Notes: a model not told the origin generated them from the letters alone. A DNA stretch of 64,000 nucleotides from Minisyncoccota bacterium (GCA_965222715.1 OZ244961.1:462277-526276), one strand, 5' to 3'; counted from the stretch's first letter, positions 13,376-48,185 are shown. A program made the numbers and translations.

Positions 13376-14507
13376 GCTTCTTTATAAAATGAATTAAATC
13401 ATCAACTTCCTTGGTTACCATTTCAACTGTAATGGATTCCGTTTGCCTTAGAGCTTCGTCTTTATTATACCCTCGTGCATTCAGAATATGTAATTCAGGC
13501 TTTTCTCGATCTGTTGGTATTACAACTCGATGTATATCGCTTATTGGCGGCTGCTCTTTTTCATCCATAGGACCAACAATATCAATAGTTGGCACGCCAA
13601 ATGCTTCCGCAATGTATATTGGGCCAGTATCAACGCTAATAAATAGACTTAGTTTGCTTATCAGTGCTTTTGTTTCATCAATTGACGAACCGGTTGTATC
13701 TATATATTCAACATCTTCAGTAAGTTTATTCTTCATACCTTCTGAGTACACCCCATCATTTGGTCCACCAATAATTAAAATGAGTGCGTTATAGTTTTTA
13801 GCAATATAATTTCCCACTTGTGCAAAACGTTCAATTGGCCATTCTTTAATTTTATTACCAACTGAAGGAGATATACCTACTAACAACTTTCCTCTATGTT
13901 GGACGAGTAATTGTTCAATTTTTTTATCAGCCTCAGAGGAGAAAGATAGGTATTTTTTTGTGTTCTTTGAAAGGATATCAAGTGGCTCAAGAAGTCGTAG
14001 TCGCTCTTGTGGAGCATACGCACCAAACCTAAAATCTTTGGTTACAACAAAATGAGAGAGAAGGGTATATGTGCGAGTAATTATTCCCCTACCCCCAACA
14101 GCAGTTGGGGTAATAATAAAGGGGGTGTCGGACAATATTGCTATCACCAAAGAAATGAAGTCAGGACCTACAACGACGCATACATCAAATTTCTCTTTTT
14201 TAACTTTTTTACTGAAACGTAATATTCCCTCCTTTTCATTGAATACAAAATAGGTGTCAACATCTGTATTCCCATCAAGAAGACTTTTATTAACACCATC
14301 ACCAATAACTCCTATTTCAGAAGATGGGTATTTTTCTTTTATAGCTCGAAATACTGGCGTGGTGCACACCATATCTCCAAGCTTCGCTGTCTGTATAACA
14401 AGTATTTTTTGTGGACTAAGAGACTTTTTATTTCTATGGTTAAAAAACACATGTACTAGTGCAAGAGTGAATAGGAATATATTTCTTAATTGAGCCCATA
14501 TTTTCAT
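13368..14507 (-). CDS. Glycosyltransferase family 9 (ADP-heptose:LPS heptosyltransferase-like)
   Basis: KILVIQTAKLGDMVCTTPVFRAIKEKYP is the canonical GT9 N-terminal motif. Confidence 0.6.
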   Translation of the reverse strand: MKIWAQLRNIFLFTLALVHVFFNHRNKKSLSPQKILVIQTAKLGDMVCTTPVFRAIKEKYPSSEIGVIGDGVNKSLLDGNTDVDTYFVFNEKEGILRFSKKVKKEKFDVCVVVGPDFISLVIAILSDTPFIITPTAVGGRGIITRTYTLLSHFVVTKDFRFGAYAPQERLRLLEPLDILSKNTKKYLSFSSEADKKIEQLLVQHRGKLLVGISPSVGNKIKEWPIERFAQVGNYIAKNYNALILIIGGPNDGVYSEGMKNKLTEDVEYIDTTGSSIDETKALISKLSLFISVDTGPIYIAEAFGVPTIDIVGPMDEKEQPPISDIHRVVIPTDREKPELHILNARGYNKDEALRQTESITVEMVTKEVDDLIHFIKKHE

Positions 14508-14528
14508 ATCCTGATAATAATATAATTT

Positions 14529-15209
14529 TTACTTTTTCAATATAAAATGAAACGTATCGAAGTAAAAAAAACGTGCAAATATATATACTGGTATCGCTAT
14601 ATATCGAAATACACCTAAAGACTTTTGTATTTTTAACAACCGTATATCTAAAACCAAGAAGCCAACATCGTGCATTTTTTGCTTGGCGCGAGTAAATGTG
14701 TCGTAGTACATCTCATCTAAACGTTGTCTACCTGATCTATCTGAATAGTATTTATGTTTTCCAAAAAGTGATATGAATGAGCTCGACATAAAACGTGGAA
14801 TCCAATTTACAAAATATAAATCAAAATGTGGATCTTTGAAACAAAATCGATTTGGCACACTTATATATGCACACCCATTGCTATCAAGCACTCGATAAGT
14901 TTCTTTTAGTAACAACTCTGGATCAGAAACATGTTCAATAACCTCAGCAATATTTATAAAACCAAATTTTTTATCAGAAAAAGGGAGGTTTTCTGCTTTT
15001 CCTTCAATTAAAGTAATTTTTAGACCTTCTCTAGCAGCAACCTCTTTTGTTTTTTTAATATTTTCTGGGTTTATCTCTAATTCAACAACATTACCCCCTT
15101 TTTTACTAATATTTAATACGAAATCGCCTTTACCAGAACCAATATCAAGTATTTTTCTATCCAAGAGATCTGGTATATGTTCTGTGAGGTTTTCTATATG
15201 TGTTTTCAT
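14529..15209 (-). CDS. Class I SAM-dependent methyltransferase
   Basis: ILDIGSGKGDFVL motif I. Confidence 0.6.
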   Translation of the reverse strand: MKTHIENLTEHIPDLLDRKILDIGSGKGDFVLNISKKGGNVVELEINPENIKKTKEVAAREGLKITLIEGKAENLPFSDKKFGFINIAEVIEHVSDPELLLKETYRVLDSNGCAYISVPNRFCFKDPHFDLYFVNWIPRFMSSSFISLFGKHKYYSDRSGRQRLDEMYYDTFTRAKQKMHDVGFLVLDIRLLKIQKSLGVFRYIAIPVYIFARFFYFDTFHFILKK

Positions 15210-15212
15210 AAT

Positions 15213-16310
15213 TTATTTCAAAAAAGAAGTGACATGTTTTACCCTTTCGTTCCAAGTAAATGACTGCACTGCTTTATATGCGGCTGCAGTCTTATCTTTT
15301 GATTCTTTTTCATGTCCTAAAACCCATCGTACTGAATTTGCAAAAGACGTGTAGTCATCTGCTACCGCAAAGTAGACTGTTTCTTCAGAGAGAACCTCAC
15401 GCATACTCGGTAAATCTGAGACGACTATTGGCACTCTTGATGCCATGTGAGCAAATACTTTCAGTGGCGAAGTGTAGAGGCGTGATATTTCACTTTTACC
15501 TGAATTTGGAATAACCAACACGTCTGCTGTTTTTTGATTATACGGCAAATCACGATATGGGAGTGAGCCAAGAAATAGTACGTCTTTATATTTTTTCTTG
15601 AAGTAGTCTAACTGACTTCCCTCGCCAATAACAGCAGTTTGTGTATTTTCAGGGAATTCTTTTGACGCCTTTAGTAGTGTCTCAACACCTTTCCAGGGAT
15701 CAAGTCGTCCAATATACATCACTATTTTTTTATCTTGTGGTAAACCAAGCTTTTTTTGTATTTCTTTTTTATCAACCTCTACATCAAACTCCTCTACATC
15801 AACTCCATCATGTGCTACTAAGATATTTTCTTCAGGTACTTCTTTTTTAATATAGAAATCTTTAAGTCCTTGAGAAATAGTAATTATTTTCTGTAAGCGT
15901 TTTAAGAGTAGCTGAGAGAAGAAATTATTTCGAGGCATGTGTATTTCCCACACTAAATTTCTTCTAATAAAACTAAGTGGCCATAACACAACGTCTTCCC
16001 GTGAATAAATAATGTCTACTTTTTTAAAAAGAACGTATAAGCTAGCAAAAAAAGAAAAACTTATGATTTGGACTAAAAAACCGAATTTACCCAACCAAAC
16101 AAAATCAAGAGATGGGAGTTTTGTGATTTTAAAATTTTTTTTGATATTAAAGTAAGAAAAAGGATTTTCTTTTATGTGATTAAAACGCCACGGAGCAACT
16201 AACGTTACTGTATGTCCTTCTTCCACAAATGCTTCGCACATTTTCATAATTTGAATACCGTGAGCCTTCTCTGTTGGAATACGTGCGTTTGTTAGATAGA
16301 TAATTTTCAT
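15213..16310 (-). CDS. Glycosyltransferase family 4 (GT-B)
   Basis: N-terminal MKIIYLTNARIPTEKAHGIQI. C-terminal GT1 domain. Confidence 0.6.
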   Translation of the reverse strand: MKIIYLTNARIPTEKAHGIQIMKMCEAFVEEGHTVTLVAPWRFNHIKENPFSYFNIKKNFKITKLPSLDFVWLGKFGFLVQIISFSFFASLYVLFKKVDIIYSREDVVLWPLSFIRRNLVWEIHMPRNNFFSQLLLKRLQKIITISQGLKDFYIKKEVPEENILVAHDGVDVEEFDVEVDKKEIQKKLGLPQDKKIVMYIGRLDPWKGVETLLKASKEFPENTQTAVIGEGSQLDYFKKKYKDVLFLGSLPYRDLPYNQKTADVLVIPNSGKSEISRLYTSPLKVFAHMASRVPIVVSDLPSMREVLSEETVYFAVADDYTSFANSVRWVLGHEKESKDKTAAAYKAVQSFTWNERVKHVTSFLK

Positions 16311-18133
16311 ACTATAACGTTATATTTTTTTACCCAAACTTGAAAAGAGATGAGTGCCCAAAGAATAGTTAGGTTATATTCTCTTTTATCGTAATGTGCG
16401 TCAAGCATATTCTGGATTTCAGACCAATTAAATAAATTCTGTGTTGATGTATGATAAGTAGGTGAAAGCACTTCTTTTGCAAGATTATATACCTCTTCGT
16501 ACCGAAGCCATTTGGCACCAGGAGAAAACCATCCACGCTTTGGTTGTGTAAATAAGTATTCCGGCAAACGACCTTTGAACGCTTCTTTCAAGATAACTTT
16601 TGTATCCCTAAGAGTAATTTTTTGGCGAACTGGAATAATGTGAGCAAAAGACACTGTGTTTGTATCAAGAAGTGGAACACGAGCTTCCAGCCCAAACGCC
16701 ATAGACATTTTATCTGTACGAAGTAACGACTCGTCAACCAGCCAACTTCGTATATCGATATCCATTAGTAACGCCTCAGGTGATACCCCTTTTTCTTTTT
16801 TAAAGTACTTATTAGAAAAAAATTCTTTTGTACGACTATTTACGTATTTATGAGCAATAACTCTTTTTAAAACCGAGTCTTTTTGAAACATAAAAAGTTC
16901 AAATTGATCAATCCCCTCCTCAGTGTTTAATTTTCTAGCTATAGAAAAATAAGAAAGCATTTTCCGCAGGGAACTGGGTATACACTTTTGATACAGTGAC
17001 ATAAAATATGCAATCCGATACCGTTCATACCCACCAAAAAGCTCATCCCCGCCATCGCCCCCAAGTACAACATCGACCCCTTCATTTTTTACAAACTCGG
17101 CAAGCTTATACTGAGCAATAAGTGTTGGATTTGCTATTGGCTCATCAAGTTGATAAATAGCTTCTTTGAGCGCATCTACCACATCAGTGTGAGAAAGTAA
17201 CACTTCATGATGTTGTGTATGATATTTTTCAGCGGTTTTGCGGGCGAGGTAAAAATCTTTATTAAATTTCTCTGATTCTTCATCTTCTTTTAAACTAAAA
17301 CCAATTGAAAACGTTTGTATATCTTTACGTAGTAATGACATAACATCAAGAACGATACTGGAGTCAATCCCACCAGAGAGATATATACCGACCGGTCTAT
17401 CAGACACAAGTTGTCTTTTAACGCTTGATGAGATATTTTGTCGCACCTCCTCTTTTGTTACTTTTTTTACCACTTTACTCCCATCTAAAGAGTAGTATCT
17501 TTCAATCCTTAATTCATTATTTGAGAGGGTTCCTTTGTGTCCAGGTGGTACTTTAAAAACATCTCTAAATAATGTTAACGGCTCGGGAACATAGAGTACC
17601 CGAAAATAATGCTCAAACGCTTCTGTATTTAATATCCGGGGTATATTGTGTTCTAAAACACCTTTTATTTCAGAAGAAAATATAAACACTCCCTCCTTAA
17701 AATAGTAATACAGAGGTTTCACCCCAACCTGATCACGTGCAAAAAACAACTCTTTTTTCTTTACGTCCCAAATTGCGAATGCAAATATCCCGTTAAATCT
17801 ATCAACACACTTACTTCCCCACCTCTTATACGCAGCGAGTACAACCTCAGAATCACTCTCCGTCCGAAATACATAAAAATTTTCCAACTCACTTCTTAGC
17901 TCTTTAAAATTATAAAGTTCTCCGTTGTACGTAAGTATAATCTCTTTATCTTCACTATACATAGGTTGGTTCGCCTCTTCAGAAAGATCAATAATGCTCA
18001 AGCGATTGTGTCCAAGAGAGATTTTTTCATCAGTAAAAATTCCTGTACCATCAGGACCTCGATGTTTTGTAACGCTATTCATTGCTGTAATAAGCTCTGC
18101 GTCCTTAAAATTAAATCCGTTTATTGCGCACAT
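16307..18133 (-). CDS. Asparagine synthetase-like amidotransferase, AsnB family (second copy)
   Basis: MCAINGF plus SGGIDSS PP-loop. 608 aa. Overlaps the downstream GT4 by 4 nt. Confidence 0.75.
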   Translation of the reverse strand: MCAINGFNFKDAELITAMNSVTKHRGPDGTGIFTDEKISLGHNRLSIIDLSEEANQPMYSEDKEIILTYNGELYNFKELRSELENFYVFRTESDSEVVLAAYKRWGSKCVDRFNGIFAFAIWDVKKKELFFARDQVGVKPLYYYFKEGVFIFSSEIKGVLEHNIPRILNTEAFEHYFRVLYVPEPLTLFRDVFKVPPGHKGTLSNNELRIERYYSLDGSKVVKKVTKEEVRQNISSSVKRQLVSDRPVGIYLSGGIDSSIVLDVMSLLRKDIQTFSIGFSLKEDEESEKFNKDFYLARKTAEKYHTQHHEVLLSHTDVVDALKEAIYQLDEPIANPTLIAQYKLAEFVKNEGVDVVLGGDGGDELFGGYERYRIAYFMSLYQKCIPSSLRKMLSYFSIARKLNTEEGIDQFELFMFQKDSVLKRVIAHKYVNSRTKEFFSNKYFKKEKGVSPEALLMDIDIRSWLVDESLLRTDKMSMAFGLEARVPLLDTNTVSFAHIIPVRQKITLRDTKVILKEAFKGRLPEYLFTQPKRGWFSPGAKWLRYEEVYNLAKEVLSPTYHTSTQNLFNWSEIQNMLDAHYDKREYNLTILWALISFQVWVKKYNVIV

Positions 18134-18137
18134 GTTT

Positions 18138-18569
18138 TTAGAATTTGTTGAGTAAATTAATTCCGTAAATAAAGAATTTTGCTCTACTTGGGCTTGTGTA
18201 GTGTCGTATCACAACTTCATTAGTCACTGGTCCCTTAATTAAGTAATGTTTTGTGGGAAGTATTTTTAAATTCTTAAGTATTGTGGCATAGCATGCTTGA
18301 TCAGTAAATTTTTTATGCATGTAATCTGTTTTTGCCAAGTAAGAAACGAAAGTATCAAAATCAAAGTTCTCGCGATTGTATAGCACAATACCTGAGTTAG
18401 CATTTGCTACCCTCTCGGATGTTTTGGTTCCATCCTTAAACTCAACATGTATGTATACATCTTCACCATTAGACATCATGAGAGACCTTTCAGCACCACG
18501 TTCAACCTCTTTATCAATTTCTATTGGTTGATGAAACCAAAGAATATCTGAATCTAGGATAAGTAACAT
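18138..18569 (-). CDS. Hypothetical protein with DXD motif (LILDSDILWF); possibly the C-terminal part of a disrupted glycosyltransferase
   Basis: 143 aa. An adjacent 91-aa ORF (18755-19030, same strand) may be the N-terminal part of the same gene. Confidence 0.3.
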   Translation of the reverse strand: MLLILDSDILWFHQPIEIDKEVERGAERSLMMSNGEDVYIHVEFKDGTKTSERVANANSGIVLYNRENFDFDTFVSYLAKTDYMHKKFTDQACYATILKNLKILPTKHYLIKGPVTNEVVIRHYTSPSRAKFFIYGINLLNKF

Positions 18570-19032
18570 TTTTTTGTCAGAAACAAAATACGGATCAATG
18601 AGTTTCTTTGATTGAAATTTTGTATATGTTTCTCGAAATTTTTTTAAAGTTGGATACGCGTTAAGTTTCTCTCCGTGTATTTCTAAAAAAGTATTGTTAT
18701 CAACAATAGTAGAAGACGGGAAGAGTCTTTTAAATATCTTCTTATCTTCCCTACTTAAAGTTCCATCATTATGTAAAAAAGCTTTCCGATTGACTGGGCA
18801 ACACTATAATAGGAGGCAAGAGACCAAAGAGCAATTAAAAAATCTTGATGGCCAGTGAGCATATGTATTGATAGATCACCATTCGTAATAGGTTTTTCAA
18901 AAGATTTTTTTGATTTCAGAATTCTTGGTGCAACAATATATCTCTGCCAAAGGAAAAAGAAACCTCGTCGTATACCATACAGAGAGAATGCCAGTTTTAT
19001 ATAAAAAATTTCACGCTTAATTTTTTTCATAG

Positions 19033-20016
19033 CTATACTATATGTTTGGAAAGAAGTTGTATAAGTTTTTGTAAAGAATGTAGCTCAACAATGTAGCTTC
19101 TTGTCTCCTTTTTGCTATTTAGCGCTTCGGTAAAGCTGTGGTTTACAGGATATTCGGTATCGTTAAAAGCCTCATTGGTGGTATAGACCGGTACATTCAT
19201 TGAAAGTGCTTCAAGAACAGCCTTATCAAGGCTCCCAGTAACGCTAAGATTAATGAATACTTTCGCCTTCGCATAAAATGGTGGTAATTCACCTTGTGGC
19301 ACATCACCAACTATTTCAACTTGATTATTCAATTCTCTCTGTTCTACCTCATTCAGAAACCTATCTCTATATATAAAATCTTCTTTAGTAACAGGTGAGC
19401 CAACAATGACTAGCTTAAAAGAAGGATAGTCCTTAAGTATATCAAGCATCTTAATAATTTGTTTTGACTCTGAAATTCGACCAACTGTCAAAATAGTGTC
19501 GTCTTTTCTGTTAGAATACTTCTCTGGAGAAAATAGTGAAGTGTCAATACCATGCCCAACAACCATAACTTTCTTACTCTTCAGACGAAAACTTTTTTTA
19601 GATGCTGTGAATATAGTATCCACAAACCCCTCTGCAACACGAAGTGAGAATGTTACTGACTTATGCGTATACCAGATGGAAATTTTTTTACCCAAAATTC
19701 TCCACAACAAACCACCGAGAATAACGTACACTTGATTCATATGCACAAAAATTGAATCGTATTTTTTACGTTCTTTCCATATATAACGATAAAAATTATA
19801 TATGTATTTTAATCGTGAAACTCCACCCTCTTTACCCAAAGAAAGTACCTGAACGTTTTCAGGAAGTGTGTACTCACCCTTCTCTAAGCAGATCACAATA
19901 ATGGATTCACACTGTGTTGCAAACTCTTCAATCCATCGGTGGAAAAAGCCGAGAATTGGATCGTTCTTGTCTACTTTCTGTGTACAAATTAAAAGCTTCA
20001 TAGTGATTCCTGCCAA
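19033..20016 (-). CDS. Glycosyltransferase family 4-like
   Basis: 327 aa. GT-B C-terminal region. Confidence 0.5.
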   Translation of the reverse strand: MAGITMKLLICTQKVDKNDPILGFFHRWIEEFATQCESIIVICLEKGEYTLPENVQVLSLGKEGGVSRLKYIYNFYRYIWKERKKYDSIFVHMNQVYVILGGLLWRILGKKISIWYTHKSVTFSLRVAEGFVDTIFTASKKSFRLKSKKVMVVGHGIDTSLFSPEKYSNRKDDTILTVGRISESKQIIKMLDILKDYPSFKLVIVGSPVTKEDFIYRDRFLNEVEQRELNNQVEIVGDVPQGELPPFYAKAKVFINLSVTGSLDKAVLEALSMNVPVYTTNEAFNDTEYPVNHSFTEALNSKKETRSYIVELHSLQKLIQLLSKHIV

Positions 20017-20897
20017 CGCTTAGCCCACTCTTCTTTTGATAAAAGTTTTATACGAAGAGTAGCAGTTGGTTTTTCTGTAAGCACACGAACTACATCCGCT
20101 ACTATTTTTTCTGGTGAAGTAATATGAGCGCCCGCCTCTTTTGCGACACCAACGTCATATGAGACAACCGGCACACCTGACGCAAGTGCCTCAATGATAC
20201 TGACACCAAAACTTTCGTATGGAGAAGTACTTAATACCACATTAGTCATTGATAAATGTGGGAGTGGGTCATCCCACCCGTGAAATGTGACCGGTAGATT
20301 TTTTGCCGCTTTCTTGAGGTCTTCCCTCATACTTCCATCACCAAGCATAGTGAGTTCTGCATTAATACCAGCATCTCTAACCTTCTTAAGTACTGAGAGT
20401 GCTTCAAGAGGGTTCTTCTCTTTTTCAAATCGACCGATCCAAAGTATGCGAGCGTCAGTATGCGCTTTTCGTTTAATATTTCTAAAGCGATCAAGATTAA
20501 CAAATACTGGGAGTATTGAGATTTTTGAATTACTATACTTTATTACCTCTTTCTGTATACGCTCTGATACAACTCGTATACTATGAGCTCTTTTGAGTAC
20601 AAAGTGGGCGCAGGTTCGGCGCAGTACCTTTTGTGTGTGCAAAAGAGTGTGCACCTGCACATTAAGCTTACTGCCCTTTCTCCAAGCAATATAAAGAGCA
20701 AAGAGACCTCGCCAAAATGGATCTTGCACTGTCACTACATCAAAATCTCCTCCTGGTATTTCTGGAAATACACTTCCTTTTCCCCAAAAGACTACCTCAA
20801 GTCTATCTACTGCATTTTTTTGTAAGATAAAACGCTGATAGGCTTCTGTGCCTTCAGAAAAGATATTTGTATCACCAGTAATCATTAAAACATTCAT
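19998..20897 (-). CDS. Glycosyltransferase family 4
   Basis: ESFGVSIIEALASGVPVV motif. Confidence 0.6.
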   Translation of the reverse strand: MNVLMITGDTNIFSEGTEAYQRFILQKNAVDRLEVVFWGKGSVFPEIPGGDFDVVTVQDPFWRGLFALYIAWRKGSKLNVQVHTLLHTQKVLRRTCAHFVLKRAHSIRVVSERIQKEVIKYSNSKISILPVFVNLDRFRNIKRKAHTDARILWIGRFEKEKNPLEALSVLKKVRDAGINAELTMLGDGSMREDLKKAAKNLPVTFHGWDDPLPHLSMTNVVLSTSPYESFGVSIIEALASGVPVVSYDVGVAKEAGAHITSPEKIVADVVRVLTEKPTATLRIKLLSKEEWAKRWQESL

Positions 20898-22006
20898 ATC
20901 TTCAACGTGGTAACAAACTTTTTAACCATATTTTCAGGGGTATGTTGGGCTAATCGCTCTTTACCATTACGCACAAGTCGAGTTGCTAACGACTCATTGT
21001 CGAGAATTTGACTCACTGCCCTAAATAATTCTTTCTTATTATTATATTTCACCAAAAGTCCATTTTTTTCATCAGTGATTAATTCAGGGTTCCCACCCAC
21101 GTTTGTTGTCACAATTGGTGTACCAATCCCCATAACTTCCAGTAGTTGATGCGAAAAACCTTCATAATTTGTATTTAAGACAAACACATCGGCCATGCGG
21201 ATGTATTTAAAGAGGACTGCTTGCTCGAGTGAGCCAGTGAGTGCAACATGTTCGTGAAGTTTTTTCTTCTCGACCATCTTTTCAAGGCGACTCATATCAG
21301 GACCATCGCCTGCAATCAAGAGTTTAAATGATGGGTACTTCTTAATAAATTCAGGGACTAGTGAAATAAGGGTATCAAACCCTTTCCAGGGCACTAATCG
21401 ACCTGCACTCACCACAATCTTCCCATTAAATTTGAGCATTCTGCGAAAATCTGCTTTTCGTCCTTGAAACGGAATCTCTTCTGGAACTGAGTGGATAACA
21501 ATTATCTTTTTTACATCAGTCACCCCCCAATTTTTGATCACACCTTTAAAATATTCACTCGGTACAATAATTTTCTCTGCATACTCTGCAATAGTTTTTT
21601 GTATTTTTTTAAGTATAAGTACCGGTACTAAATATTCATCCCCTTTCTTTGAAAACACATCAAGGTGATCAGTTACTTTAAAACGCTGTGTTCCCTGCTC
21701 CCACGCATAATCCCCCGCGATACGTACAAAAAATCGCTTGGAGCGCATTTTTGCAACAAGCGCAGCAGGAACGCCAACACTCACTGGGTCAAGCGCATAA
21801 ACAAGGTCAGCAACCTGAGCTTTTTTGTACAGCTGAAAGGTATATACCAGATGCCGAATTCCCCACGGAAGATGGGAAACTGAGTTAAACGGCGCCACCG
21901 ATACTGAAATCTGGTGTTTAGGGAGATGCTCTTCGAGCATCTTAACGTATGTCGCCGGACCCCCTATTTGAGGTGCATATGCCCCTGTTGCGATAAGTAT
22001 GTGCAT
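20894..22006 (-). CDS. Glycosyltransferase family 4
   Basis: EGFSHQLLEVMGIGTPIVTTNVGGNPE motif. N-terminal MHILIATGAYAPQIGG. Confidence 0.65.
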   Translation of the reverse strand: MHILIATGAYAPQIGGPATYVKMLEEHLPKHQISVSVAPFNSVSHLPWGIRHLVYTFQLYKKAQVADLVYALDPVSVGVPAALVAKMRSKRFFVRIAGDYAWEQGTQRFKVTDHLDVFSKKGDEYLVPVLILKKIQKTIAEYAEKIIVPSEYFKGVIKNWGVTDVKKIIVIHSVPEEIPFQGRKADFRRMLKFNGKIVVSAGRLVPWKGFDTLISLVPEFIKKYPSFKLLIAGDGPDMSRLEKMVEKKKLHEHVALTGSLEQAVLFKYIRMADVFVLNTNYEGFSHQLLEVMGIGTPIVTTNVGGNPELITDEKNGLLVKYNNKKELFRAVSQILDNESLATRLVRNGKERLAQHTPENMVKKFVTTLKI

Positions 22007-22181: not shown

Positions 22182-22730
22182 ATGAAAATTCTCGTACTCA
22201 CACCACTTTTCCCGCCAGATATTGGAGGCTCAGCGCCATATATAAAAGAATTGGTGACCCGTCTCTCAAACAGGAAATATTCGGTTACTGTTCTCGCCTA
22301 TGGATGTCTCCCCGAAGACGTTCCTGGAGTGATGTTTAGATGTGTTAATAAAAAAATTCCTACGTTCTTGAGAATATTCCTGTTTAGTATGAAAACATTT
22401 CGTGAGGCACGAAAACATGATTTCATATATGCAGAAAACGGACCTTCGGTAGAATTACCCCTACGACTATTGAAGTTTTTTCTAAAAACACCACTAGTTT
22501 TTCACATAGGAGACCACCCTGCATATACATACGGACAAACAAAACCATTTCTAAATAAAAATCAAAAGGTGGTAGAGAGGTATGCACATACAGTCGTGGA
22601 AGAAACTCCGGAACCACGTCCAGAAATACTTCCACATAAAAAGTACCCGACAGATTTGTTTAAAGCGTATGAGAAAAGCTGGGACACGCATTTAGAAAAA
22701 CTTGAGCATATATTTCATTATGTCAGATAA
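22182..22730 (+). CDS. GT4 N-terminal domain only (truncated glycosyltransferase fragment)
   Basis: MKILVLTPLFPPDIGGSAPYIKELV matches the Glyco_trans_4 N-terminal domain. No C-terminal GT1 domain. Overlaps the next gene by 29 nt in another frame. Confidence 0.4.
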   Translation: MKILVLTPLFPPDIGGSAPYIKELVTRLSNRKYSVTVLAYGCLPEDVPGVMFRCVNKKIPTFLRIFLFSMKTFREARKHDFIYAENGPSVELPLRLLKFFLKTPLVFHIGDHPAYTYGQTKPFLNKNQKVVERYAHTVVEETPEPRPEILPHKKYPTDLFKAYEKSWDTHLEKLEHIFHYVR

Positions 22731-26713: not shown

Positions 26714-28138
26714 TTATTCATCAATAATAGTAATTTCTTCTCGTCCGATACGTCTTAATATGAGCACACTACACACTCCAAAGAGAACTGTGCCACCAAG
26801 TAATAGAAACCATTGTATTCCAATTCCCGACGTATCGTTGGAAGCTTGGTACACATTTGCAACATTGTATGAGGTATCTTCTGGGTTTTCTTCTGGAGGC
26901 GTGATTGATTCCGCTATGTTATTTTCTTGAGTTGTTTCTTCTCTAACAACAGTCGTACCTACAATTGAACGAGATGGTGTTTGTACTCTAGGAGAGTCGT
27001 TGTGTTCTGTAAAAGCATTCAGCGACAGGTTTCTTGTTTCTCTTTCTTGAAAAGCTCTAACCAGAGAACCGTTTGGATATAGGAAGGTAACTTCCTCAAC
27101 ATGTTGCGGGGTAAGTCCCGTTACCGTAGCTGGAAAGACGACTGACCGCTTTGGCAACATTCGTGTACCTTGAGGAAGGTAAAATACAGTATTATGAGCC
27201 ATAAGCATCCAATGCGAAATATCGAGCACACGGTCACTCTCATTTCTCAGTGTAATACTTTGAGGAGACGCATCTGCCACAAACACGTCTGCGGGTTTTG
27301 CCGTTACCACAATATAATCAGAAGCAGAGTATTTACCTGAAGAGACGGTGAGGACCACTACGTACTCCCCTGGATACTCATAGTGATGCAAGACCACTTC
27401 TCCGTCCTTGTGACTTCCATCACCAAACGCCCATAAGTATCGAGCTTGCTCCAACGGCTCATTTTGAAGACCAAACCCTATTCCTTTAAACTCACTATCG
27501 GCACCAACGGTTACTACCCGATCTTCTCCTGCATACGCCCTAATACTACCGGTATCTTCAATAAATACAGACGAACTGGGTGATGAGCTTTGAGGGCTGC
27601 TACTTTCCCCTTCTTCGCTACTACCTATTAGATTTATACTTCCTGTTCCTGGTGTTGGTGTTTCTGCTATCCACGTATTTCCATCATACTGAAGTGACAT
27701 CCCGTCTCCAGCAGCACCCCACTCAGAAAGATATGAAACGGTATCTCGATCAATTAATTCAGCGTCTCTTAAAACGAGAGTTTCTCCTGTATTTTTTAAT
27801 GAAAAAGAACTATCGACAAGTACTCCATTATAAGAAGGGTTATCAGCAAGAAAAACATCAGTGTTATCAGCAATAACAGCGTATGAACCAGGTGAGAGCG
27901 TGTCGCTTCCTGAAACTACCGAAAGACCATGGTTTACCCCACTTTCAAAAAATTTCCATTCGGTAAGTAGAATATTTTCAGTGCCCTTGTTAAATACTTC
28001 AATCCACTCTCTATCGGTGTCAGAACCTTCAAGGTCATACACTATCTCACTGAAAATAAGTTGTGCTTCAACGATAAGGGGTATACAAAACACACAAAGT
28101 GAAATACCAAGTGCGTATGTATGCTTATTACTTATCAT
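26714..28138 (-). CDS. Membrane-anchored protein with lamin tail domain(s) (LTD)
   Basis: N-terminal signal/TM. LIFSEIVYDLEGSDTDREWIEVFNKGTENILLTEWKF matches the LTD signature. A second LTD-like block (ITLRNESDRVLDISHWML) follows. C-terminal TM anchor. Confidence 0.5.
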   Translation of the reverse strand: MISNKHTYALGISLCVFCIPLIVEAQLIFSEIVYDLEGSDTDREWIEVFNKGTENILLTEWKFFESGVNHGLSVVSGSDTLSPGSYAVIADNTDVFLADNPSYNGVLVDSSFSLKNTGETLVLRDAELIDRDTVSYLSEWGAAGDGMSLQYDGNTWIAETPTPGTGSINLIGSSEEGESSSPQSSSPSSSVFIEDTGSIRAYAGEDRVVTVGADSEFKGIGFGLQNEPLEQARYLWAFGDGSHKDGEVVLHHYEYPGEYVVVLTVSSGKYSASDYIVVTAKPADVFVADASPQSITLRNESDRVLDISHWMLMAHNTVFYLPQGTRMLPKRSVVFPATVTGLTPQHVEEVTFLYPNGSLVRAFQERETRNLSLNAFTEHNDSPRVQTPSRSIVGTTVVREETTQENNIAESITPPEENPEDTSYNVANVYQASNDTSGIGIQWFLLLGGTVLFGVCSVLILRRIGREEITIIDE

Positions 28139-29873
28139 CCTTTAAAATATTTTCAAGGACCTCTCGTGGCACCTCATTAGGTATGTGTTGAGAATTTTCT
28201 TGCTGTGCGCTCTGCTGTTCTACAGTTTTTCCTCTACCCTTATTTTTCTTTGCAGTATCTTCTTTCGTATCAACTTTTTTTTGAGTAGTACCATTTTGAA
28301 TTGAAGCAAGCGCTTCTCTTAGTGCATCACGCTGTTTTGGTGATGGACCCTTATCATCACCGTTAGTGCGCATCTTTAAGGTATTAAGTGATACCGTTCT
28401 CTTTTCTCTTTTATGTTGCTGTTTTTGTTGTTTCTCTTCCTTTCCACGAGACTCTAGATGAGAAGCGGTATTTCCATGATTGGTACCATGCCCACTACTT
28501 TTATCTTGTGATGGTGCTGTTTTTCTTTGTTGTTTTTGCCCCTGCTGCTTCTGTTGTTGTTCTTTTTTCTGCTGTGCTTGGGGACTATCAAGTATGCCAC
28601 GATCAGCAATAGACTTCTCAACAGCATCTCGAGGGCGACCATATTTCTCACGTGAAGTCTTTAAAATTTCATCTCGAAAACTTATTTCTGGTTCTTTTAT
28701 GGGTGGTAATGTGGTTGCTGAGAATGGAGGTGAGCCAACACCATCAATCATGAGGGTGAGGTAAATTTGGGCGAACCCAAGGTTCACCAAATCTTCTGCA
28801 AAAAACTTTGGTTTAAAGACGGTTTCGAGTACCTCAGCATCAAAGGGGCCCACTCGAAAGGCAATAGTACTACCCACGTTACCAAAAACTGCATTACGTA
28901 CATTTTCTTCCATCTGCTCAACATACTGATGCGCAATGGTGAGCGCTAACTTATACTTTCTTGCCTCAGAGAGAATGTCAGCGAACGAGTCGTTTGCGAT
29001 TGACTGGAATTCATCAACATAGAAATAAAACGGTGGGAGCTTTGCTTGTGTTGCACTTGGTTCATCTGCTCGAGACATTGCAGAGAGATAGATTTTGGTC
29101 GTGAGCATACTTCCAATAAGGTCCGCGTTGGTTTCTCCCATACGCCCCTTTGAGAGGTTCGCAATAAAAATTTTCTTACTATCCATCACCTCCCTAATAT
29201 CAAAACTTGATCTTTGTTGCCCAACAATATTTCGAATCAATGGGTTTGAAGTAAACTGACCGACCTTGTTTTGAATCGCCGGTGTTGCTTCTTGTGTATA
29301 GCGATCGGTATAGTTTGCAAACTCATCAACCCAGAATGATTTCACGATCGGGTCAGTAACATGCTCGACAACCTTCTTTCGAAAACTTTTATTAACTAGC
29401 ATGCGATTCACATCAAGAAGTGTTGAATCGGGATATTCAAGAAGTGCGAGTAGTACATTACTCAAAATGTACTCCATACGTGCTGACCACGCATCTTTCC
29501 AAATCTTATTAAATGCACTCATCAACCCAGAGACCACAAGGTGCCGCTTGTCGTACCCCACATCTTCCATTACGTTAAACGCAACTGGAGTATCCATATC
29601 AAAGGGAGCAAAATAGATGACATCCTCAATGCGATGCTCTGGCACATAATCAAGGAGTTTCTCAGCAGTTGAGCCGTGGGGGTCAATAAATCCGAGGCCG
29701 TTTCCATGCTGGATATCCTGAATGGCCATATTCTCAAGCAAGGTCGACTTACCCATACCGGTCTTACCGATAATGTACATGTGCTTTGAGCGGTCGATTG
29801 CTTTGATGCCAAATGCTCGTTGCTGCCCACGGGCATCAGTTGCACCAATATAGGTTACTTTCTCAAGATCCAT
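28128..29873 (-). CDS. VirD4/TraD/TraG-like (T4SS coupling protein / HerA-FtsK superfamily) P-loop ATPase with low-complexity Lys/Gln-rich C-terminal tail
   Basis: Walker A IIGKTGMGKSTLLENM. Walker-B-like FYFYVDEFQ. C-terminal ~130 aa are KQE-rich. Confidence 0.5.
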   Translation of the reverse strand: MDLEKVTYIGATDARGQQRAFGIKAIDRSKHMYIIGKTGMGKSTLLENMAIQDIQHGNGLGFIDPHGSTAEKLLDYVPEHRIEDVIYFAPFDMDTPVAFNVMEDVGYDKRHLVVSGLMSAFNKIWKDAWSARMEYILSNVLLALLEYPDSTLLDVNRMLVNKSFRKKVVEHVTDPIVKSFWVDEFANYTDRYTQEATPAIQNKVGQFTSNPLIRNIVGQQRSSFDIREVMDSKKIFIANLSKGRMGETNADLIGSMLTTKIYLSAMSRADEPSATQAKLPPFYFYVDEFQSIANDSFADILSEARKYKLALTIAHQYVEQMEENVRNAVFGNVGSTIAFRVGPFDAEVLETVFKPKFFAEDLVNLGFAQIYLTLMIDGVGSPPFSATTLPPIKEPEISFRDEILKTSREKYGRPRDAVEKSIADRGILDSPQAQQKKEQQQKQQGQKQQRKTAPSQDKSSGHGTNHGNTASHLESRGKEEKQQKQQHKREKRTVSLNTLKMRTNGDDKGPSPKQRDALREALASIQNGTTQKKVDTKEDTAKKNKGRGKTVEQQSAQQENSQHIPNEVPREVLENILKDDK

Positions 29874-34108: not shown

Positions 34109-34496
34109 CAAAGTACAGCACATAGTAGCAAAATGAGTCTATAATCTCAACGCCTAGCAGATAACTTAGTGAGTACTTGAAGAATCTTGCAGTATTTGCT
34201 ACCCTCCCTAATGGAATAACCCTAACCTAATTGGAGGCTTTTCGTGTGTCAACGATATAGTGGAAGAAACCATATCCCGCAAGATCAAGGTACGTCGCGT
34301 GAAAACGGAGGTGGCTGCTCCGTTGCCGGCAAGGAAAATAAGTGCCAAGGCAAAAAGAGACTGCCTCGGAAGAGAAAGCGGGACCAAGCATCGAGACCGA
34401 GGAGCGGCTCGATTCTTCAGGCACATTGGGCATGAATACAACAACCGCGCAGATCAGTGATCTGCGCGGTTTCTCGTTACAGCTATCACGGATAGA

Positions 34497-34535
34497 AATA
34501 AAAAACGCCAAAGGTACCTTTGGCGTTTTTTTACG
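34497..34535. terminator. A-run / CGCCAAAGGTACCTTTGGCG hairpin / T-run (bidirectional-terminator-like) inside the 16S-to-tRNA-Ile region
   Basis: Perfect 20-nt palindrome flanked by A7 and T7. Confidence 0.4.
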
Positions 34536-34749
34536 GCTCTGTAGAGCCATTTTTATTAATATACTTTCTTTTGTTCCGTTCAATCTCCAAGTAACGCACT
34601 TCTTGGTTAGCGAGTGTAGCCCCGATATGAAATCGGGACTCCGACAGAACCGTCGGAGATAAGAGTACAACACTATTGCTCTTTCCATGCTCGTACGAGG
34701 CATAGAAGATCGACCGGTTAAGTTGTATACCGTAGTACACAACGTCTCC

Positions 34750-36212
<1,463 letters not shown>

Positions 36213-39655: not shown

Positions 39656-40720
39656 TTAACGACGAGATTCTTCAGGTACATACTCTTCGTATCGTCCATC
39701 AGTGTGATAAAAAGCGTCAAACGACGAATGTTTGTAGTGATATCCGTACATATCAGTAAGTTTTGAACCATCCATAACAATGGGGTATGAATAGAACCGC
39801 CACCCACCACGAGATGTTGGTATCTTTCCACGTGTGAGGTGCCAAAACCAAAAAAATGCGAATCGAATAAGAAGTGGTGGCACCATAATGACTCGCTTCC
39901 CCACAGCCTTTCCCATATCTTTCGGTCGCACCACTTCTCCAGGAGGTGTAATGTTAAAGACTTCATAGGCACCTGTAATATCTTCAAAAGAAAGAAGGGC
40001 GACAATATCTGTCACATCATCCTCATGAATAAATTGGCGACACCATTTTTTAGTCGCAGGGACATTTGCAACTAAGAATGAAACCATGCGATACACGAAT
40101 GAATCCTTAAGTTGACCTGAGAGTGCTGACTGTAAACCAAAGCGGATACGCATAAAACGACCACGAGGACCAGTAATGGCTGCAGGGCGTACAACGAACA
40201 CCTGAGGGGTGCTGTCTTTGGCTTGAGCTTTATATGCATCTTCTAAGAGCTCTTCAACAATTCGTTTTTCATTACCATACGAATACTCTGTTTCTCGAAA
40301 CTCTTCTGTCTCTTTAAACATGTGTTCAAGAGTGTTGTCTTTATACGCACCATACGAAGAAGCGGTTGAAAAATAAATGAGTCGTTGTACTGAATCTTGA
40401 TTAAAAGCAAAATCAAATACTTTCTTCGAACCTATAACATTCCACTGGTACTGCGTGTCTCGATCTCCATACATTTCTCGAATCTGCCACGCTGTATGAA
40501 TGACAATATCTGGATTATACGAAGCAACCTTGTCTTCCCATGAACTGTCAGTAGTATGTGCCGTAATCCAGACAATTTTTTCATTACTCTCAAGAAGTTC
40601 TGGCTTCTCTTCTTTATCAAGCGCAATAATTTGCTCTACATCATCACGTTGTGAAAATTGGTCACAGAGCATCGCACCAACGTACCCCGCTCCTCCAGTT
40701 ATAAATAGTGTGTGTTTCAT
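39656..40720 (-). CDS. NAD-dependent epimerase/dehydratase family protein
   Basis: MKHTLFITGGAGYVGAMLCDQF Rossmann motif. Confidence 0.6.
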   Translation of the reverse strand: MKHTLFITGGAGYVGAMLCDQFSQRDDVEQIIALDKEEKPELLESNEKIVWITAHTTDSSWEDKVASYNPDIVIHTAWQIREMYGDRDTQYQWNVIGSKKVFDFAFNQDSVQRLIYFSTASSYGAYKDNTLEHMFKETEEFRETEYSYGNEKRIVEELLEDAYKAQAKDSTPQVFVVRPAAITGPRGRFMRIRFGLQSALSGQLKDSFVYRMVSFLVANVPATKKWCRQFIHEDDVTDIVALLSFEDITGAYEVFNITPPGEVVRPKDMGKAVGKRVIMVPPLLIRFAFFWFWHLTRGKIPTSRGGWRFYSYPIVMDGSKLTDMYGYHYKHSSFDAFYHTDGRYEEYVPEESRR

Positions 40721-40725
40721 ACGAA

Positions 40726-42087
40726 TTAACTTCCCAGTCGTGAAAATATAGTAGTAAGTGTTTGTAGTGCTATCTGTATATCTAAGATAAGTGAACGATT
40801 TTTAATATAATACACATCATACGCTAAACGTACCTCTGTATCTACAACTGACTGCGGAGAGACTTGGTTCTTTAGACCGTAGTCTTGTTTTATTTGTGCC
40901 CATCCAGTGAGTCCTGGTTTAATGAAGTTACGAACAGTGTAGTGAGGGATTTCTTCTGAAAGTCGCTTATGCAGGCCAGCAATATCTGGACGAGGCCCAA
41001 TGAAAGACATGTCACCAATAAATACACTCCAGAGTTGTGGGAGTTCGTCAATACGTGTCTTTCGTAAAAAGGAACCAACCCGAGTGATTGTATTGTCAGT
41101 TTCACCAATCCATACACCATCTTCGTTTCGTGTCATTGTTCGAAACTTTACAACAACTATTTCTTCTCCATCCTCTCCAATACGGGTCTGGGTGATGAAG
41201 ACACTCCCACCATCCTCGAGTTTAATTAAAAGATACACGAATGGATACACTAGTAATGACAGTAACCCCAGTGTGACAGAACCTAAAATATCTATAGCAC
41301 GCTTTGCTAGAGCGTAAAAAATTCGTGGACGTGTTGAGATAGTGTTCATGATCCAACGCTCGTTAAGCGCCGAGAGAGGAATGCGTTCAAATATATCTTC
41401 GTAGAGATTATGAATATCAAGGTAGGTGACGTCTTTCTCAGTAATTGATGATAGAGAGTTAAGTACAGACTCAATACTTCGACTTTTTATATCAGCAACA
41501 ATAACTGAGACCTCGCCACTATGTATCTTCTCTTTTATTCGAGCAATAACCTCGCTAACTCCTTCGGGACCATCGAGTAGTATTGCGTCAACAAACTCAA
41601 GTGCATATCGAGGGTTTCCATTCACTTCAGTAGTGAGCTCATCTACTTCTGTTTGGTATCCAATAATGACTGCTTTTTGCTTCTTTCGAAAACCAATGTA
41701 TGGGAAAAAGTTGATTCGCCACATAATAATAAAGAGTGACGAAAAGACGAGATAGAGTACTAAATTAGTTTTGGGAGCAATATCAAAGTACGGCACAAAG
41801 AAGAAAAAGAGAGCTGCAATAATGATATTTATTGCCTGAGCATTAAGTATGATTGATGGTATTTTCTTCCGGAGAATAGAGGTATGTTTGTTATATAAAC
41901 CAGAAATAAAGAATACTAATACCCATACAATAAAAAGTAACGAAAAAGGAATGATGTGGTTATATAAGAGTGTAGCTGATGGTGTCTCCACGTAACGCAC
42001 AAGAAGCGTCACCCACAGTGCAAGTAAGAAAAATACAACATCTCCAACAAGAAGAATGATAGGTTCCTGTTTAATAGCTATAGTCAT
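40726..42087 (-). CDS. Polyprenyl-phosphate glycosylphosphotransferase (bacterial sugar transferase, WbaP/EpsL-like initiating enzyme)
   Basis: N-terminal TM helices. C-terminal Bac_transf motifs FRTM...GPRP...KPGLTGWAQI. Confidence 0.7.
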   Translation of the reverse strand: MTIAIKQEPIILLVGDVVFFLLALWVTLLVRYVETPSATLLYNHIIPFSLLFIVWVLVFFISGLYNKHTSILRKKIPSIILNAQAINIIIAALFFFFVPYFDIAPKTNLVLYLVFSSLFIIMWRINFFPYIGFRKKQKAVIIGYQTEVDELTTEVNGNPRYALEFVDAILLDGPEGVSEVIARIKEKIHSGEVSVIVADIKSRSIESVLNSLSSITEKDVTYLDIHNLYEDIFERIPLSALNERWIMNTISTRPRIFYALAKRAIDILGSVTLGLLSLLVYPFVYLLIKLEDGGSVFITQTRIGEDGEEIVVVKFRTMTRNEDGVWIGETDNTITRVGSFLRKTRIDELPQLWSVFIGDMSFIGPRPDIAGLHKRLSEEIPHYTVRNFIKPGLTGWAQIKQDYGLKNQVSPQSVVDTEVRLAYDVYYIKNRSLILDIQIALQTLTTIFSRLGS

Positions 42088-42190
42088 TATGTCGCTTACA
42101 ATACAACAAAAAACCTTCTTGGCAAGTTACTCCCTTGCTTTCTCTATCGCTTTCTCTATTGAGAAAAATTTGCTCTACTAATAGATATAA

Positions 42191-42236
42191 ATGAAAAAGA
42201 AAATCCTTTTTGTCATAACTAAATCAAATTTTGGCG
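42191..42236 (+). repeat. 46-nt direct repeat of the GT4 gene start (copy 1); copy 2 at 42370-42415
   Basis: ATGAAAAAGAAAATCCTTTTTGTCATAACTAAATCAAATTTTGGCG occurs twice. Confidence 0.7.
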
Positions 42237-42369
42237 AAGCAATGCTAGCACATTTTAGAAACCCACGGTTTCTAACGCTCACTACGTTCGCTGTTTTCCT
42301 CAACGGGAACCTCCCGGTTCCCGACCCCTCCCCACGCCCCGCCAAAATATATTGTGCTACATTTTCATT

Positions 42370-43512
42370 ATGAAAAAGAAAATCCTTTTTGTCATAACTA
42401 AATCAAATTTTGGCGGGGCGCAACGCTATGTGTATGATCTTGCACGTTCACTACCGAGCGAGAAGTACGATGTAGCGGTCGCCTTTGGAGGTAGTGGCAT
42501 CTTACAAGATAAACTTGAGGCGGCAGGAATACGCACACTACCACTTGGACGACTTGGACGAGACGTACACTTTTTTGATGACCTATCTTCTTTTTGGCAA
42601 CTCTATAAACTTTTTAAAGATGAGCACCCTGACGTGGTCCATCTTAACAGCTCAAAAGGTGGAGGAATAGGTGCCTGTGCAGCTCGTATAGCAAGAGTAC
42701 CCTGCATACTCTTTACTGCTCATGGGTGGGCATTTAATGAGAAGAGACCGTGGTGGCAAAAAGGTATTATTGTGCTACTCGCATGGTTCACAGTTATCCT
42801 ATCCCATACAACAATCGCGGTATCGAAAAACATCAAACACCAGATGCGACATCTACCCTTCACACAAAGAAAAATGGTTGTTATCTATAACGGAGTTGAT
42901 GTTGCTGGGGTACTTTCGCAAAAAGAAGCACGTGAAGTACTACGTCATAACAATGAAAAAATACGAAACATACCAGAAGATGCTGTATGGGTAGGAACAG
43001 TCGCTGAACTTCACCCCACTAAAGGTCACCGTTACGCAATTGATGCAATAGAACGGCTTATTTCCTCAGGATATAACGTCTACTTTATTATCATTAGTGA
43101 CGGTGAAGAGCGATACGAACTTAAGAAGTATATTCAAAAACACAATCTCGAAGATCGAGTAATCCTCTTTGGCTTTCTTGACTCGGCGCCACAGTATTTA
43201 AAGGCGCTTGATATCTTTACTCTTACTTCAATATCAGAAGCACTTTCTCTTTCAATACTTGAAGCAGGGCTCTCTGAACGTGCGGTGGTTGCAAGTAATG
43301 TTGGTGGTATTCCTGAAATTATTACCCACAAAGAAAATGGATTTCTTGTACCCAAAAAGAACCCTGCTGCTATTGCGGAGGCGTTGATTCGCTATATTGA
43401 ACACCCTGAAGTGAGGGAGGTATATGGAAAAGCATTACGAGAAAAAGTAGCATCAGTATTTTCTCTTGAGAGAATGGTTGAAGAAACACAAAGACTGTAT
43501 ACAAAAAATTAA
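42370..43512 (+). CDS. Glycosyltransferase family 4
   Basis: MKKKILFVITKSNFGGAQRYVYDLA N-terminal. C-terminal ISEALSLSILEAGLSERAVVASNVGGIPEI. Confidence 0.65.
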   Translation: MKKKILFVITKSNFGGAQRYVYDLARSLPSEKYDVAVAFGGSGILQDKLEAAGIRTLPLGRLGRDVHFFDDLSSFWQLYKLFKDEHPDVVHLNSSKGGGIGACAARIARVPCILFTAHGWAFNEKRPWWQKGIIVLLAWFTVILSHTTIAVSKNIKHQMRHLPFTQRKMVVIYNGVDVAGVLSQKEAREVLRHNNEKIRNIPEDAVWVGTVAELHPTKGHRYAIDAIERLISSGYNVYFIIISDGEERYELKKYIQKHNLEDRVILFGFLDSAPQYLKALDIFTLTSISEALSLSILEAGLSERAVVASNVGGIPEIITHKENGFLVPKKNPAAIAEALIRYIEHPEVREVYGKALREKVASVFSLERMVEETQRLYTKN

Positions 43513-45888: not shown

Positions 45889-46048
45889 AAAGGTGCGAAA
45901 AAATGTAAGAATATAAGCAGCGTTCAGATTTCCTAATAAGAGACAAACGACGAATTAGTACTCCTTGGCTAAACACATTACTGTGCGTACACCGAGAGCC
46001 TATCACCTAATCATCTCTTAGGGGTCTATGATTTCTTATCTTGAGGTT

Positions 46049-46081
<33 letters not shown>

Positions 46082-46225
46082 GTTCCCGACATAGCTACTC
46101 GGCAGTGCTCCTGGCGGAACAGCCGATACACCAGAGGTCAGTTCATTCCGGTCCTCTCGTACTAGGAACAAATCCTCTCAAAAATCGACGCCTACAGCAG
46201 ATTAAGACCAACCTGTCTCACGCAT

Positions 46226-46694: not shown

Positions 46695-46728
<34 letters not shown>

Positions 46729-47210: not shown

Positions 47211-47257
<47 letters not shown>

Positions 47258-48155: not shown

Positions 48156-48185
48156 TACGAACGGCATTTTATCCAAGATTGTGTT

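Follow-up and report, generated by a model that had tools for sequence, protein, structure and literature searches.

A coupling-protein-like ATPase without a transmembrane domain, paired with a lamin-tail-domain surface protein in Paceibacteria-type Patescibacteria

Type IV coupling proteins (T4CPs) such as TrwB, VirD4, TraD, Cagβ and DotL have a RecA-like domain that carries an all-α insertion. Here we describe an ATPase of this kind and its neighbour, a surface protein with lamin tail domains (LTDs), both encoded in a 64,000-nt stretch of a Minisyncoccota bacterium genome (OZ244961.1:462277-526276, the whole of which is called the window below). The ATPase has the domain layout of the T4CPs, shares their Pfam matches and finds its best structural matches among them. 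Like them, it also has a long C-terminal extension that ends in a peptide of the partner-binding type, and this recalls F-plasmid TraD, whose tail binds TraM. Unlike the T4CPs, it lacks the N-terminal transmembrane (TM) domain and begins with a conserved β-hairpin; it has no link to virB4, to a relaxase or to a plasmid or integrative and conjugative element, it is conserved to the degree of a housekeeping protein, and its partner is an LTD surface protein. We are confident that the two genes make up a chromosomal, operonic two-gene module of Paceibacteria-type Patescibacteria.

Orphan T4CPs are already known from this phylum. According to a 2025 survey by Quiñonero-Coronel et al., homologues of the VirD4 type occur in 2,918 of 3,035 Patescibacteria genomes (96%), with 5,713 genes in total, of which only 148 lie near virB4; virB4 itself was found in 2,417 genomes, and exaptation of the T4CP homologues was suggested or at least not excluded (PMC12102498). 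The window ATPase probably belongs to this same population of orphan proteins. The passages of that paper that were consulted mention neither an architecture without TM helices nor the tail motifs, and likewise neither the LTD partner nor the DUF8128/HARE-HTH association described below.

Other described systems are similar in part. In plasmid pIP501, the TM-less coupling-type ATPase TraJ is encoded beside TraI, a membrane protein proposed as its anchor (PMC12857230). TraI, however, is a small protein with two TM helices in a plasmid type IV secretion system (T4SS) operon, whereas the neighbour found here is a 474-aa single-pass protein with a large immunoglobulin-like ectodomain and no T4SS genes around it. 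VirB4 (C-terminal ATPase domain, 4ag5) and HerA (4d2i) differ from the window ATPase by the VirB4 N-terminal domain, the HAS-barrel and the NurA partner, none of which it has. The ExeM/NucH and Xds nucleases resemble the LTD protein in being secreted or membrane-tethered with an N-terminal LTD (PMC6085458). Unlike these enzymes and the ComEA-type receptors, the LTD protein has no nuclease, OB-fold or helix-hairpin-helix domain, and a DNA-binding role of the LTD is putative. Nothing was found on Patescibacteria LTD proteins or on DUF8128 in the searchable literature, from which the TM-less architecture with tail peptides, the LTD-PKD-LTD partner and the module with DUF8128 and helix-turn-helix (HTH) proteins are absent.

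A coupling-type ATPase with a disordered tail

A first-pass annotation of the window had proposed a gene pair at 28128-29873 and 26714-28138, and open reading frames (ORFs) of 581 and 474 aa were found there. The ATPase gene has the following features.

28128-29873, minus strand: gene for the TM-less VirD4/T4CP-like ATPase, 581 aa (ORF, Pfam, AlphaFold2 (AF2) model and fold matches)
28590-29873, minus strand: ATPase core, residues 1-428 (model secondary structure, orthologue identity and invariant catalytic residues)
29742-29768, minus strand: Walker A, GKTGMGKST, residues 36-44 (G36, K37, G39, G41 and K42 invariant in alignment A3)
29181-29555, minus strand: all-α insertion, residues ~107-231, counterpart of the T4CP all-α domain (AF2 model)
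29004-29030, minus strand: Walker B, FYFYVDEFQ, residues 282-290 (Y285 to Q290 invariant)
28131-28589, minus strand: tail, residues 429-581, basic, disordered and of low complexity (the first AF2 model gives it a pLDDT below 50; variable in alignment A1)
28296-28397, minus strand: mid-tail motifs TVSLNTLK (residues 493-500) and QRDALREALASIQ (residues 514-526; alignment A1)
28131-28175, minus strand: C-terminal peptide motif EVPREVLENILKDDK, residues 567-581 (A1 and 50%-identity representatives)

The Walker A/B layout of a coupling-type ATPase, which had been read from the sequence in the first pass, was borne out by the two motifs and by Pfam matches above cut-off to TrwB_AAD_bind (E=1e-9, 38.2 bits against a cut-off of 20.5, residues 29-339) and TraG-D_C (E=2.8e-5, 24.5 bits against a cut-off of 22). 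The catalytic residues are invariant in 89 sequences that include both short and long forms of the protein (see below). The NCBIfam TraD matches all stayed below threshold, and within NCBIfam the profiles favour a T4CP (SXT_TraD, E=1e-12) over VirB4 (VirB4_plasma, E=3e-3). When PDB sequences were searched, TrwB came out best whether the single protein or the family profile was used (profile E=3.4e-4), and the spacing between Walker A and Walker B agrees with that of TrwB.

Two AF2 models were built. The first, based on 24 close homologues, reached a pLDDT of 59 and was unreliable at residues 287-384, and was not used for fold comparison. The second, covering residues 1-445 and built from 89 diverse homologues, reached a pLDDT of 90.8 and a pTM of 0.88. 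In this model the core consists of an N-terminal β-hairpin, a RecA-like nucleotide-binding domain and a C-terminal three-helix extension, in this order, and the eight helices of the all-α insertion sit between strands 85-88 and 235-239. A Foldseek search of the PDB with the model ranked TrwBΔN70 first (E ~1e-12, TM score 0.60-0.66), followed by Cagβ, DotL and HerA; the VirB4 C-terminal domain was also among the best fold matches. Over 347-372 residues the model aligns to TrwB and Cagβ, with a sequence identity to solved T4CPs of only 12-16%. HerA gave a TM score of 0.50, lower than that of TrwB. Because of the Pfam matches, the PDB sequence matches and the Foldseek ranking, we conclude that the ATPase belongs to the VirD4/VirB4/HerA clade of P-loop ring translocases, and the sequence profiles favour the coupling-protein branch of this clade. 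The protein is not a generic AAA protein, in line with the first-pass annotation.

Features typical of the other branches were looked for as well. There was no Pfam match to the VirB4 N-terminal domain (CagE_TrbE_VirB), and the ATPase begins only ~35 residues before Walker A. A HAS-barrel of the HerA type was not found in the AF2 model, where only a two-strand β-hairpin precedes the P-loop, and no nuclease gene that could stand for NurA adjoins the ATPase gene. The protein contains no hydrophobic segment (the highest Kyte-Doolittle mean over 19 residues is 1.34), and the short-form homologues likewise lack a TM segment. A stop codon upstream of the ORF excludes a longer N-terminus.

The tail had been described as a basic stretch of about 130 aa of K/Q/E repeats. 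Its basic character was confirmed (K+R 21%, Q 16%, D+E 14%, pI 9.9), while its length is 153 aa, and the repeats turned out to be a linker with short conserved motifs. Repeats were rejected in favour of a compositional bias, since Tandem Repeats Finder gave only a trivial 16-nt match at the DNA level. The tail is basic in 108 of the 118 homologues compared, its median net charge is +7, and its sequence as such is not conserved. Within it, the mid-tail motifs stand out in A1: L518 is invariant, A521 and L522 are conserved to at least 90%, QRDALREAL is a conserved short peptide, and the first, poor AF2 model has a helix at residues 512-528. The C-terminal motif is of the type E-[VI]-[PS]-x-x-x-L-x-x-[IVL]-L and is conserved in A1 and in many 50%-identity representatives. 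In one clade the tail contains a zinc ribbon of the treble-clef type and has another terminal motif, ILxPGxxIKF; similar mid-tail motifs occur in this zinc-ribbon clade (L083/L085). We favour a view of the tail as a charged linker that offers peptides for partner binding; polyanion binding by the tail would be compatible with such a linker.

The lamin-tail-domain partner and the conservation of the pair

The second gene encodes a protein with the order LTD-PKD-LTD and the topology of a type I membrane protein.

26714-28138, minus strand: gene for the LTD-PKD-LTD' type I membrane protein, 474 aa (ORF, Pfam and family alignment A2)
28064-28138, minus strand: signal peptide, residues 1-25, up to IVEA|Q (hydrophobic window that starts at residue 5; predicted cleavage site)
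27731-28066, minus strand: first LTD, residues 25-136 (PF00932, E=1.5e-17, 64.4 bits against a cut-off of 34.3)
27305-27535, minus strand: PKD domain, residues 202-278 (PF18911, E=5e-11; PF00801, E=3.3e-7)
27023-27292, minus strand: second LTD in degenerate form, residues 283-372 (domain 3 aligned with domain 1 in hhalign at a probability of 95%, E=3.8e-8)
26717-26818, minus strand: C-terminal TM helix, residues 441-463, followed by a cytoplasmic tail of 11 residues, IGREEITIIDE (the Kyte-Doolittle profile peaks at 2.34, residue 443)
28128-28138, minus strand: 11-nt overlap of the ATPase stop codon with the LTD start codon, ATGATAAGTAA (sequence)

The putative signal-peptide cleavage site is supported by an A-x-A-Q junction conserved in A2. 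A Ser-rich linker separates the first LTD from the PKD domain, and a variable linker lies between the second LTD and the TM helix. A PDB sequence search matched the PKD region to PKD domains of collagenases, and the precomputed Pfam annotation of homologues lists the LTD twice. Only LTD and PKD families were detected: there was no nuclease domain, of the EEP type or otherwise, and neither Pfam nor NCBIfam gave a helix-hairpin-helix domain of the ComEA type. The window protein defines a Paceibacteria family of ~450-500 aa with 35-50% identity. Its cytoplasmic tail motif is kept in close relatives and is absent or different in other clades.

Eight loci (L015, L032, L039, L054, L064, L069, L075 and L077) have LTD proteins that stop right at the TM helix. 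This subclade shares the C-terminus SPWTLG(F/L)L...AGGAF(I/L)(F/V)L, a sequence reminiscent of a C-terminal sorting signal.

As claimed in the first pass, the LTD module recurs in a second large surface protein at 55993-58551, where it occupies residues 664-770 (E=1.7e-9). That protein belongs to another family than the ATPase partner, and no ATPase adjoins it.

The two genes of the pair overlap as the first-pass annotation had it, by 11 nt (ATGATAAGTAA). Of the 44 loci in which a first ORF-based gene call had both genes, 34 showed a spacing of -62 to +20 nt. Predicted promoters and terminators around the operon occurred no more often than in shuffled sequence. For the ATPase, more than 8,000 close homologues were returned, and for both proteins the nearest ones are from Kaiserbacteria and Paceibacteria assemblies; an exhaustive search of 50%-identity representatives gave 5,777 clusters at E≤1e-30 for the ATPase family. 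No relatives were found in IMG/VR viral contigs.

Conservation of the pair in relatives was examined from both sides. In a six-frame hidden Markov model search, the ATPase was followed by an LTD-family ORF in 61 of 73 informative loci; an earlier ORF clustering had undercounted the pair (40 of 75 loci), as over-extended ORFs masked the downstream frame. Starting from the LTD protein, five divergent homologues were looked up, and a T4CP-like ATPase lies directly upstream in all five. Two of these (L085, from Tagabacteria, and L086) have neighbours unrelated to those in Paceibacteria, so that inherited synteny alone does not account for the pairing. Reconstruction gave a paired root state, with at least seven losses of the LTD gene, and 12 loci keep the ATPase without it.

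In a clade without the LTD gene, a type IV prepilin-like gene adjoins the ATPase upstream and in the same orientation (L010 and L058). A G|FTLIELLVVIAIIG motif is present in the member from L056 that represents this gene cluster.

A universal docking site for the ATPase in the cytoplasmic tail of the LTD protein (EITIIDE) was considered and rejected, as this tail is absent or unrelated in other clades; docking of this kind is also contradicted by the C-terminal motif of the ATPase, which is kept whether or not an LTD gene follows.

Median identities over 78 related loci were 72% for the ATPase core, 54% for RsmI, 48% for DUF4015 and 28% for the LTD protein. As judged from sequence comparison, the ATPase is under strong purifying selection.

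No T4SS, relaxase or competence family, ComEC or pilus ATPase was detected among the 36 window ORFs scanned against Pfam, which agrees with the earlier remark that no conjugation genes are nearby. The scan left aside nine ORFs (>=120 aa) in 12473-22006 and, in other places, several that are shorter or overlap others, 22182-22730 and 34227-34766 among them.

These data bear on the reading of the ATPase as the coupling protein of a virB4-type T4SS encoded elsewhere on the chromosome, which would dock via a separate membrane partner, the LTD protein being an adhesin or anchor. The T4CP fold and the Pfam membership speak for it, as does the precedent of a TM-less T4CP with a separate anchor, TraJ/TraI of pIP501 (PMC12857230), and according to the survey T4CP genes often lie away from virB4 (PMC12102498). 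The survey, however, also reports T4CP homologues in more genomes than virB4 (2,918 against 2,417), at about two copies per genome, and a T4CP homologue of S. epibionticum that is non-essential while the T4SS is essential, although this gene is not necessarily an orthologue of the window family (PMC12102498). Moreover, the core identity of ~72% far exceeds the values of the neighbours, and T4SS genes were not found in the scanned part of the window. We consider this reading unlikely; a role of the ATPase that is independent of a T4SS appears somewhat better than evenly probable.

Genomic surroundings

In Paceibacteria, the pair is flanked by cell-wall genes on one side and by runs of glycosyltransferase family 4 (GT4) genes on the other. 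The flanking cell-wall genes encode MurD-like ligases, MurI, a fusion of LD-transpeptidase and DD-carboxypeptidase, and DUF4015, with RsmI among them. Cell-wall and glycosyltransferase genes also dominate the neighbourhoods of 80 relatives, and in most of these related loci the pair has the same position on the chromosome.

It could be argued from this setting that the adjacency is operonic without being mechanistic, with the LTD protein serving an envelope or surface-glycan programme (as an adhesin, a wall-associated or a glycan-binding protein) and the ATPase a separate housekeeping role. The position of the Paceibacteria pair between DUF4015, LD-transpeptidase, Mur ligases and RsmI and the GT4 runs is consistent with this, and so are the glycan island of the window (with Wzy, a flippase, sugar transferases and FtsW), the repeated loss or shortening of the LTD gene and the fast evolution of the LTD protein (28% identity). 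On the other hand, the pair persists in the differing neighbourhoods of L085 and L086, the ATPase was directly upstream in all five look-ups from the LTD side, and the genes often overlap or lie very near each other. Such a division of roles is rather unlikely in our estimation.

The neighbours of the murD-like, murI, murB, divIC and ftsW type, together with the near-universal occurrence and extreme conservation of the ATPase, would also suit an FtsK-like housekeeping DNA translocase for segregation or division, recruited by its linker and C-terminal peptide much as FtsZ recruits partners. The design of a disordered linker with a conserved terminal peptide recalls that of the FtsZ C-terminal peptide. 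Against this, the window ATPase gave no Pfam match to FtsK_SpoIIIE (PF01580), no division genes are near the pair in L085 and L086, and the extracellular LTD partner would be left without a role. This explanation strikes us as quite improbable.

For a remnant of an integrated conjugative or mobile element, only the membership in the coupling-protein family can be cited. The constant chromosomal position in most of the 80 related loci, the unremarkable GC content (0.42), the viral contigs without relatives and the failure to find relaxase, integrase or T4SS genes nearby all argue otherwise, and we find this origin hardly credible.

Window positions 1-22000 and 39656-43512 form a surface-polysaccharide gene island that is large for a genome of ~0.6 Mb. 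It encodes a Wzy-type ligase with tetratricopeptide repeats, a flippase, FkbM and other methyltransferases, 2-oxoglutarate/PhyH oxygenases, an asparagine synthase, GT8 and GT4 transferases, epimerases and an initiating sugar transferase. The window also encodes SecDF and FtsW.

The 16S (34751-36210) and 23S (45934-49666, minus strand) rRNA genes lie ~10 kb apart. Between them are genes for a trypsin-like peptidase, SecDF, an epimerase, a sugar transferase, a GT4 protein and FtsW, and the rRNA operon is therefore unlinked. The 23S gene holds two tRNA genes at 48089-48166 and 48186-48261, a Thr-CGT and a Phe-like one with anticodon AAA, with Rfam scores of 50 and 61.9 bits. Its 5' piece (48262-49666) corresponds to model positions 1-1292 and its 3' piece (45934-48088) to positions 1187-2925. 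The position of the tRNAs between the two pieces points to an intervening-sequence site, and processing there would fragment the 23S rRNA; the 3' piece exceeds the model length by ~400 nt, which points to another insertion. The unlinked rRNA genes, the insertions in the 23S gene and the closest homologues of the two proteins identify the window as part of a Patescibacteria (CPR) genome.

At 59207-59770 (minus strand), the window encodes a 187-aa protein with a PaaX central/Cas2-like domain (E=3.9e-18). The ORFs near it (58530-59108, 60021-60845 and 60986-63835) were scanned and are not Cas proteins.

Partners in relatives and a proposed role

The ATPase family has two architectures, the short form of the window and a long form in Berkelbacteria-like genomes. 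In the long form, seen in L081 and L082, an N-terminal TM helix and a DUF8128 domain of ~350 residues (PF26449) are fused before the ATPase. In L085 and L086, two separate genes come before the pair instead, one for a TM-DUF8128 protein and one for a σ70-region-4 protein, and the latter protein of L085 also has a HARE-HTH domain (Sigma70_r4 plus HARE-HTH). An orthologous HTH gene (E ~1e-50) precedes the DUF8128-ATPase fusion in the Berkelbacteria-type loci. This alternation of DUF8128 between a gene of its own and a fusion partner, depending on the lineage, speaks for a joint function with the ATPase. No match for DUF8128 was found in the PDB, a local copy of Pfam, NCBIfam or PADLOC. With the DUF8128 and HTH partners of relatives and the fusion of the Berkelbacteria type, the window pair looks like the remnant of a four-part machine.

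The Berkelbacteria-type loci contain two DUF8128-ATPase paralogues a few kb apart (5636-8149 and 10001-13423 in L081; 5658-8195 and 10001-13087 in L082), one with a long disordered tail and the other without. Beside them lie DUF5663 and several large proteins without family matches.

Some likeness to defence proteins was noted: PADLOC returned a mad8 match (E=7e-14), and region 4 of the HTH partner resembles MzaA. One might thus think of an anti-phage or anti-plasmid ATPase of the HerA/DptH/MADS type. Both similarities, however, are only at the level of the superfamily, and no nuclease, methylase or Sir2 effector gene is adjacent. Defence genes are, moreover, patchy and fast-evolving, whereas this gene is near-universal, syntenic and ~72% identical across orders. 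A defence function is very improbable.

In the role that we propose, the ATPase would form a ring, as TrwB, HerA and VirB4 do, and would be recruited to the cytoplasmic membrane via partner proteins and its basic tail rather than by TM helices of its own. NTP hydrolysis would drive the moving or processing of a polyanionic substrate, most likely DNA. The single-pass LTD protein is predicted to display its LTD, PKD domain and second LTD outside the cell, where the ectodomain may capture the substrate; alternatively, the substrate may be passed on inside by the HTH protein. The ATPase would act independently of a virB4-type T4SS. DNA is suggested because of the known biology of the family, the basic tail and the zinc ribbon, the HTH partner, and the recurrent association of bacterial LTDs with ectoenzymes that degrade nucleic acids. 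Bacterial LTDs occur mainly alongside hydrolases that are membrane-associated and belong to the metallo-β-lactamase, synaptojanin and calcineurin-like types, and deletion of the LTD slows the ExeM nuclease in vitro (PMC6085458).

Several points weigh against this proposal. The LTD is dispensable for ExeM activity in vivo, and the function of LTDs is unsettled (PMC6085458). DNA binding, ring formation and contact between the ATPase and the LTD protein go beyond the features observed. The module contains no polytopic channel protein and thus cannot alone explain passage across the membrane. T4CPs are known to handle protein substrates too. The cytoplasmic tail of the LTD protein is not universal, since the proteins of one clade stop exactly at the TM helix and those of others carry a short basic tail, and the LTD gene was lost at least seven times among 78 relatives. 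The C-terminal motif of the ATPase persists where the LTD gene is missing; therefore, the motif binds something other than the LTD protein, and the core role of the ATPase is independent of it. Furthermore, no DUF8128 or HTH gene was found in the window, nor within ±8 kb in 80 relatives except for one HTH match (L023). Lastly, the Paceibacteria pair is always found among cell-wall and glycan genes, and an envelope role also fits.

The first-pass annotation had named the pair a candidate for DNA uptake or transfer. The pairing, whose conservation it had set as a check, proved to be conserved, while the module lacks a channel-forming membrane protein and neither ComEC nor a pilus ATPase was in the scanned part of the window. 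A DNA-uptake reading is plausible. DNA as the substrate combined with an uptake-type function is put forward tentatively, as possible and on the doubtful side, and the explanation as a whole, mechanism included, is the best we can offer at somewhat less than an even chance. Its widest version, a near-universal, T4SS-independent translocation machine for DNA or other polyanions with a ring of the anchor-less ATPase as motor, TM-DUF8128 as dock in the membrane, the LTD-PKD-LTD protein as receptor outside and the σ70-region-4/HARE-HTH protein as adaptor on the DNA side, seems to us improbable as it stands.

Patescibacteria are a huge and mostly uncultured group with tiny genomes, and near-universal, strongly conserved genes are thus likely to be central to their lifestyle. 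The recurrent surface partner and, in some lineages, DUF8128 and the DNA-binding-type protein turn an orphan ATPase into a defined candidate machine, which could be tested in the now tractable Saccharibacteria, given an orthologue there. If the ATPase moves DNA, this would bear on nucleotide supply and gene exchange in Patescibacteria. If the four-part machine proves true, it would be an unrecognised route of nucleic-acid acquisition or exchange in organisms that are unable to make nucleotides.

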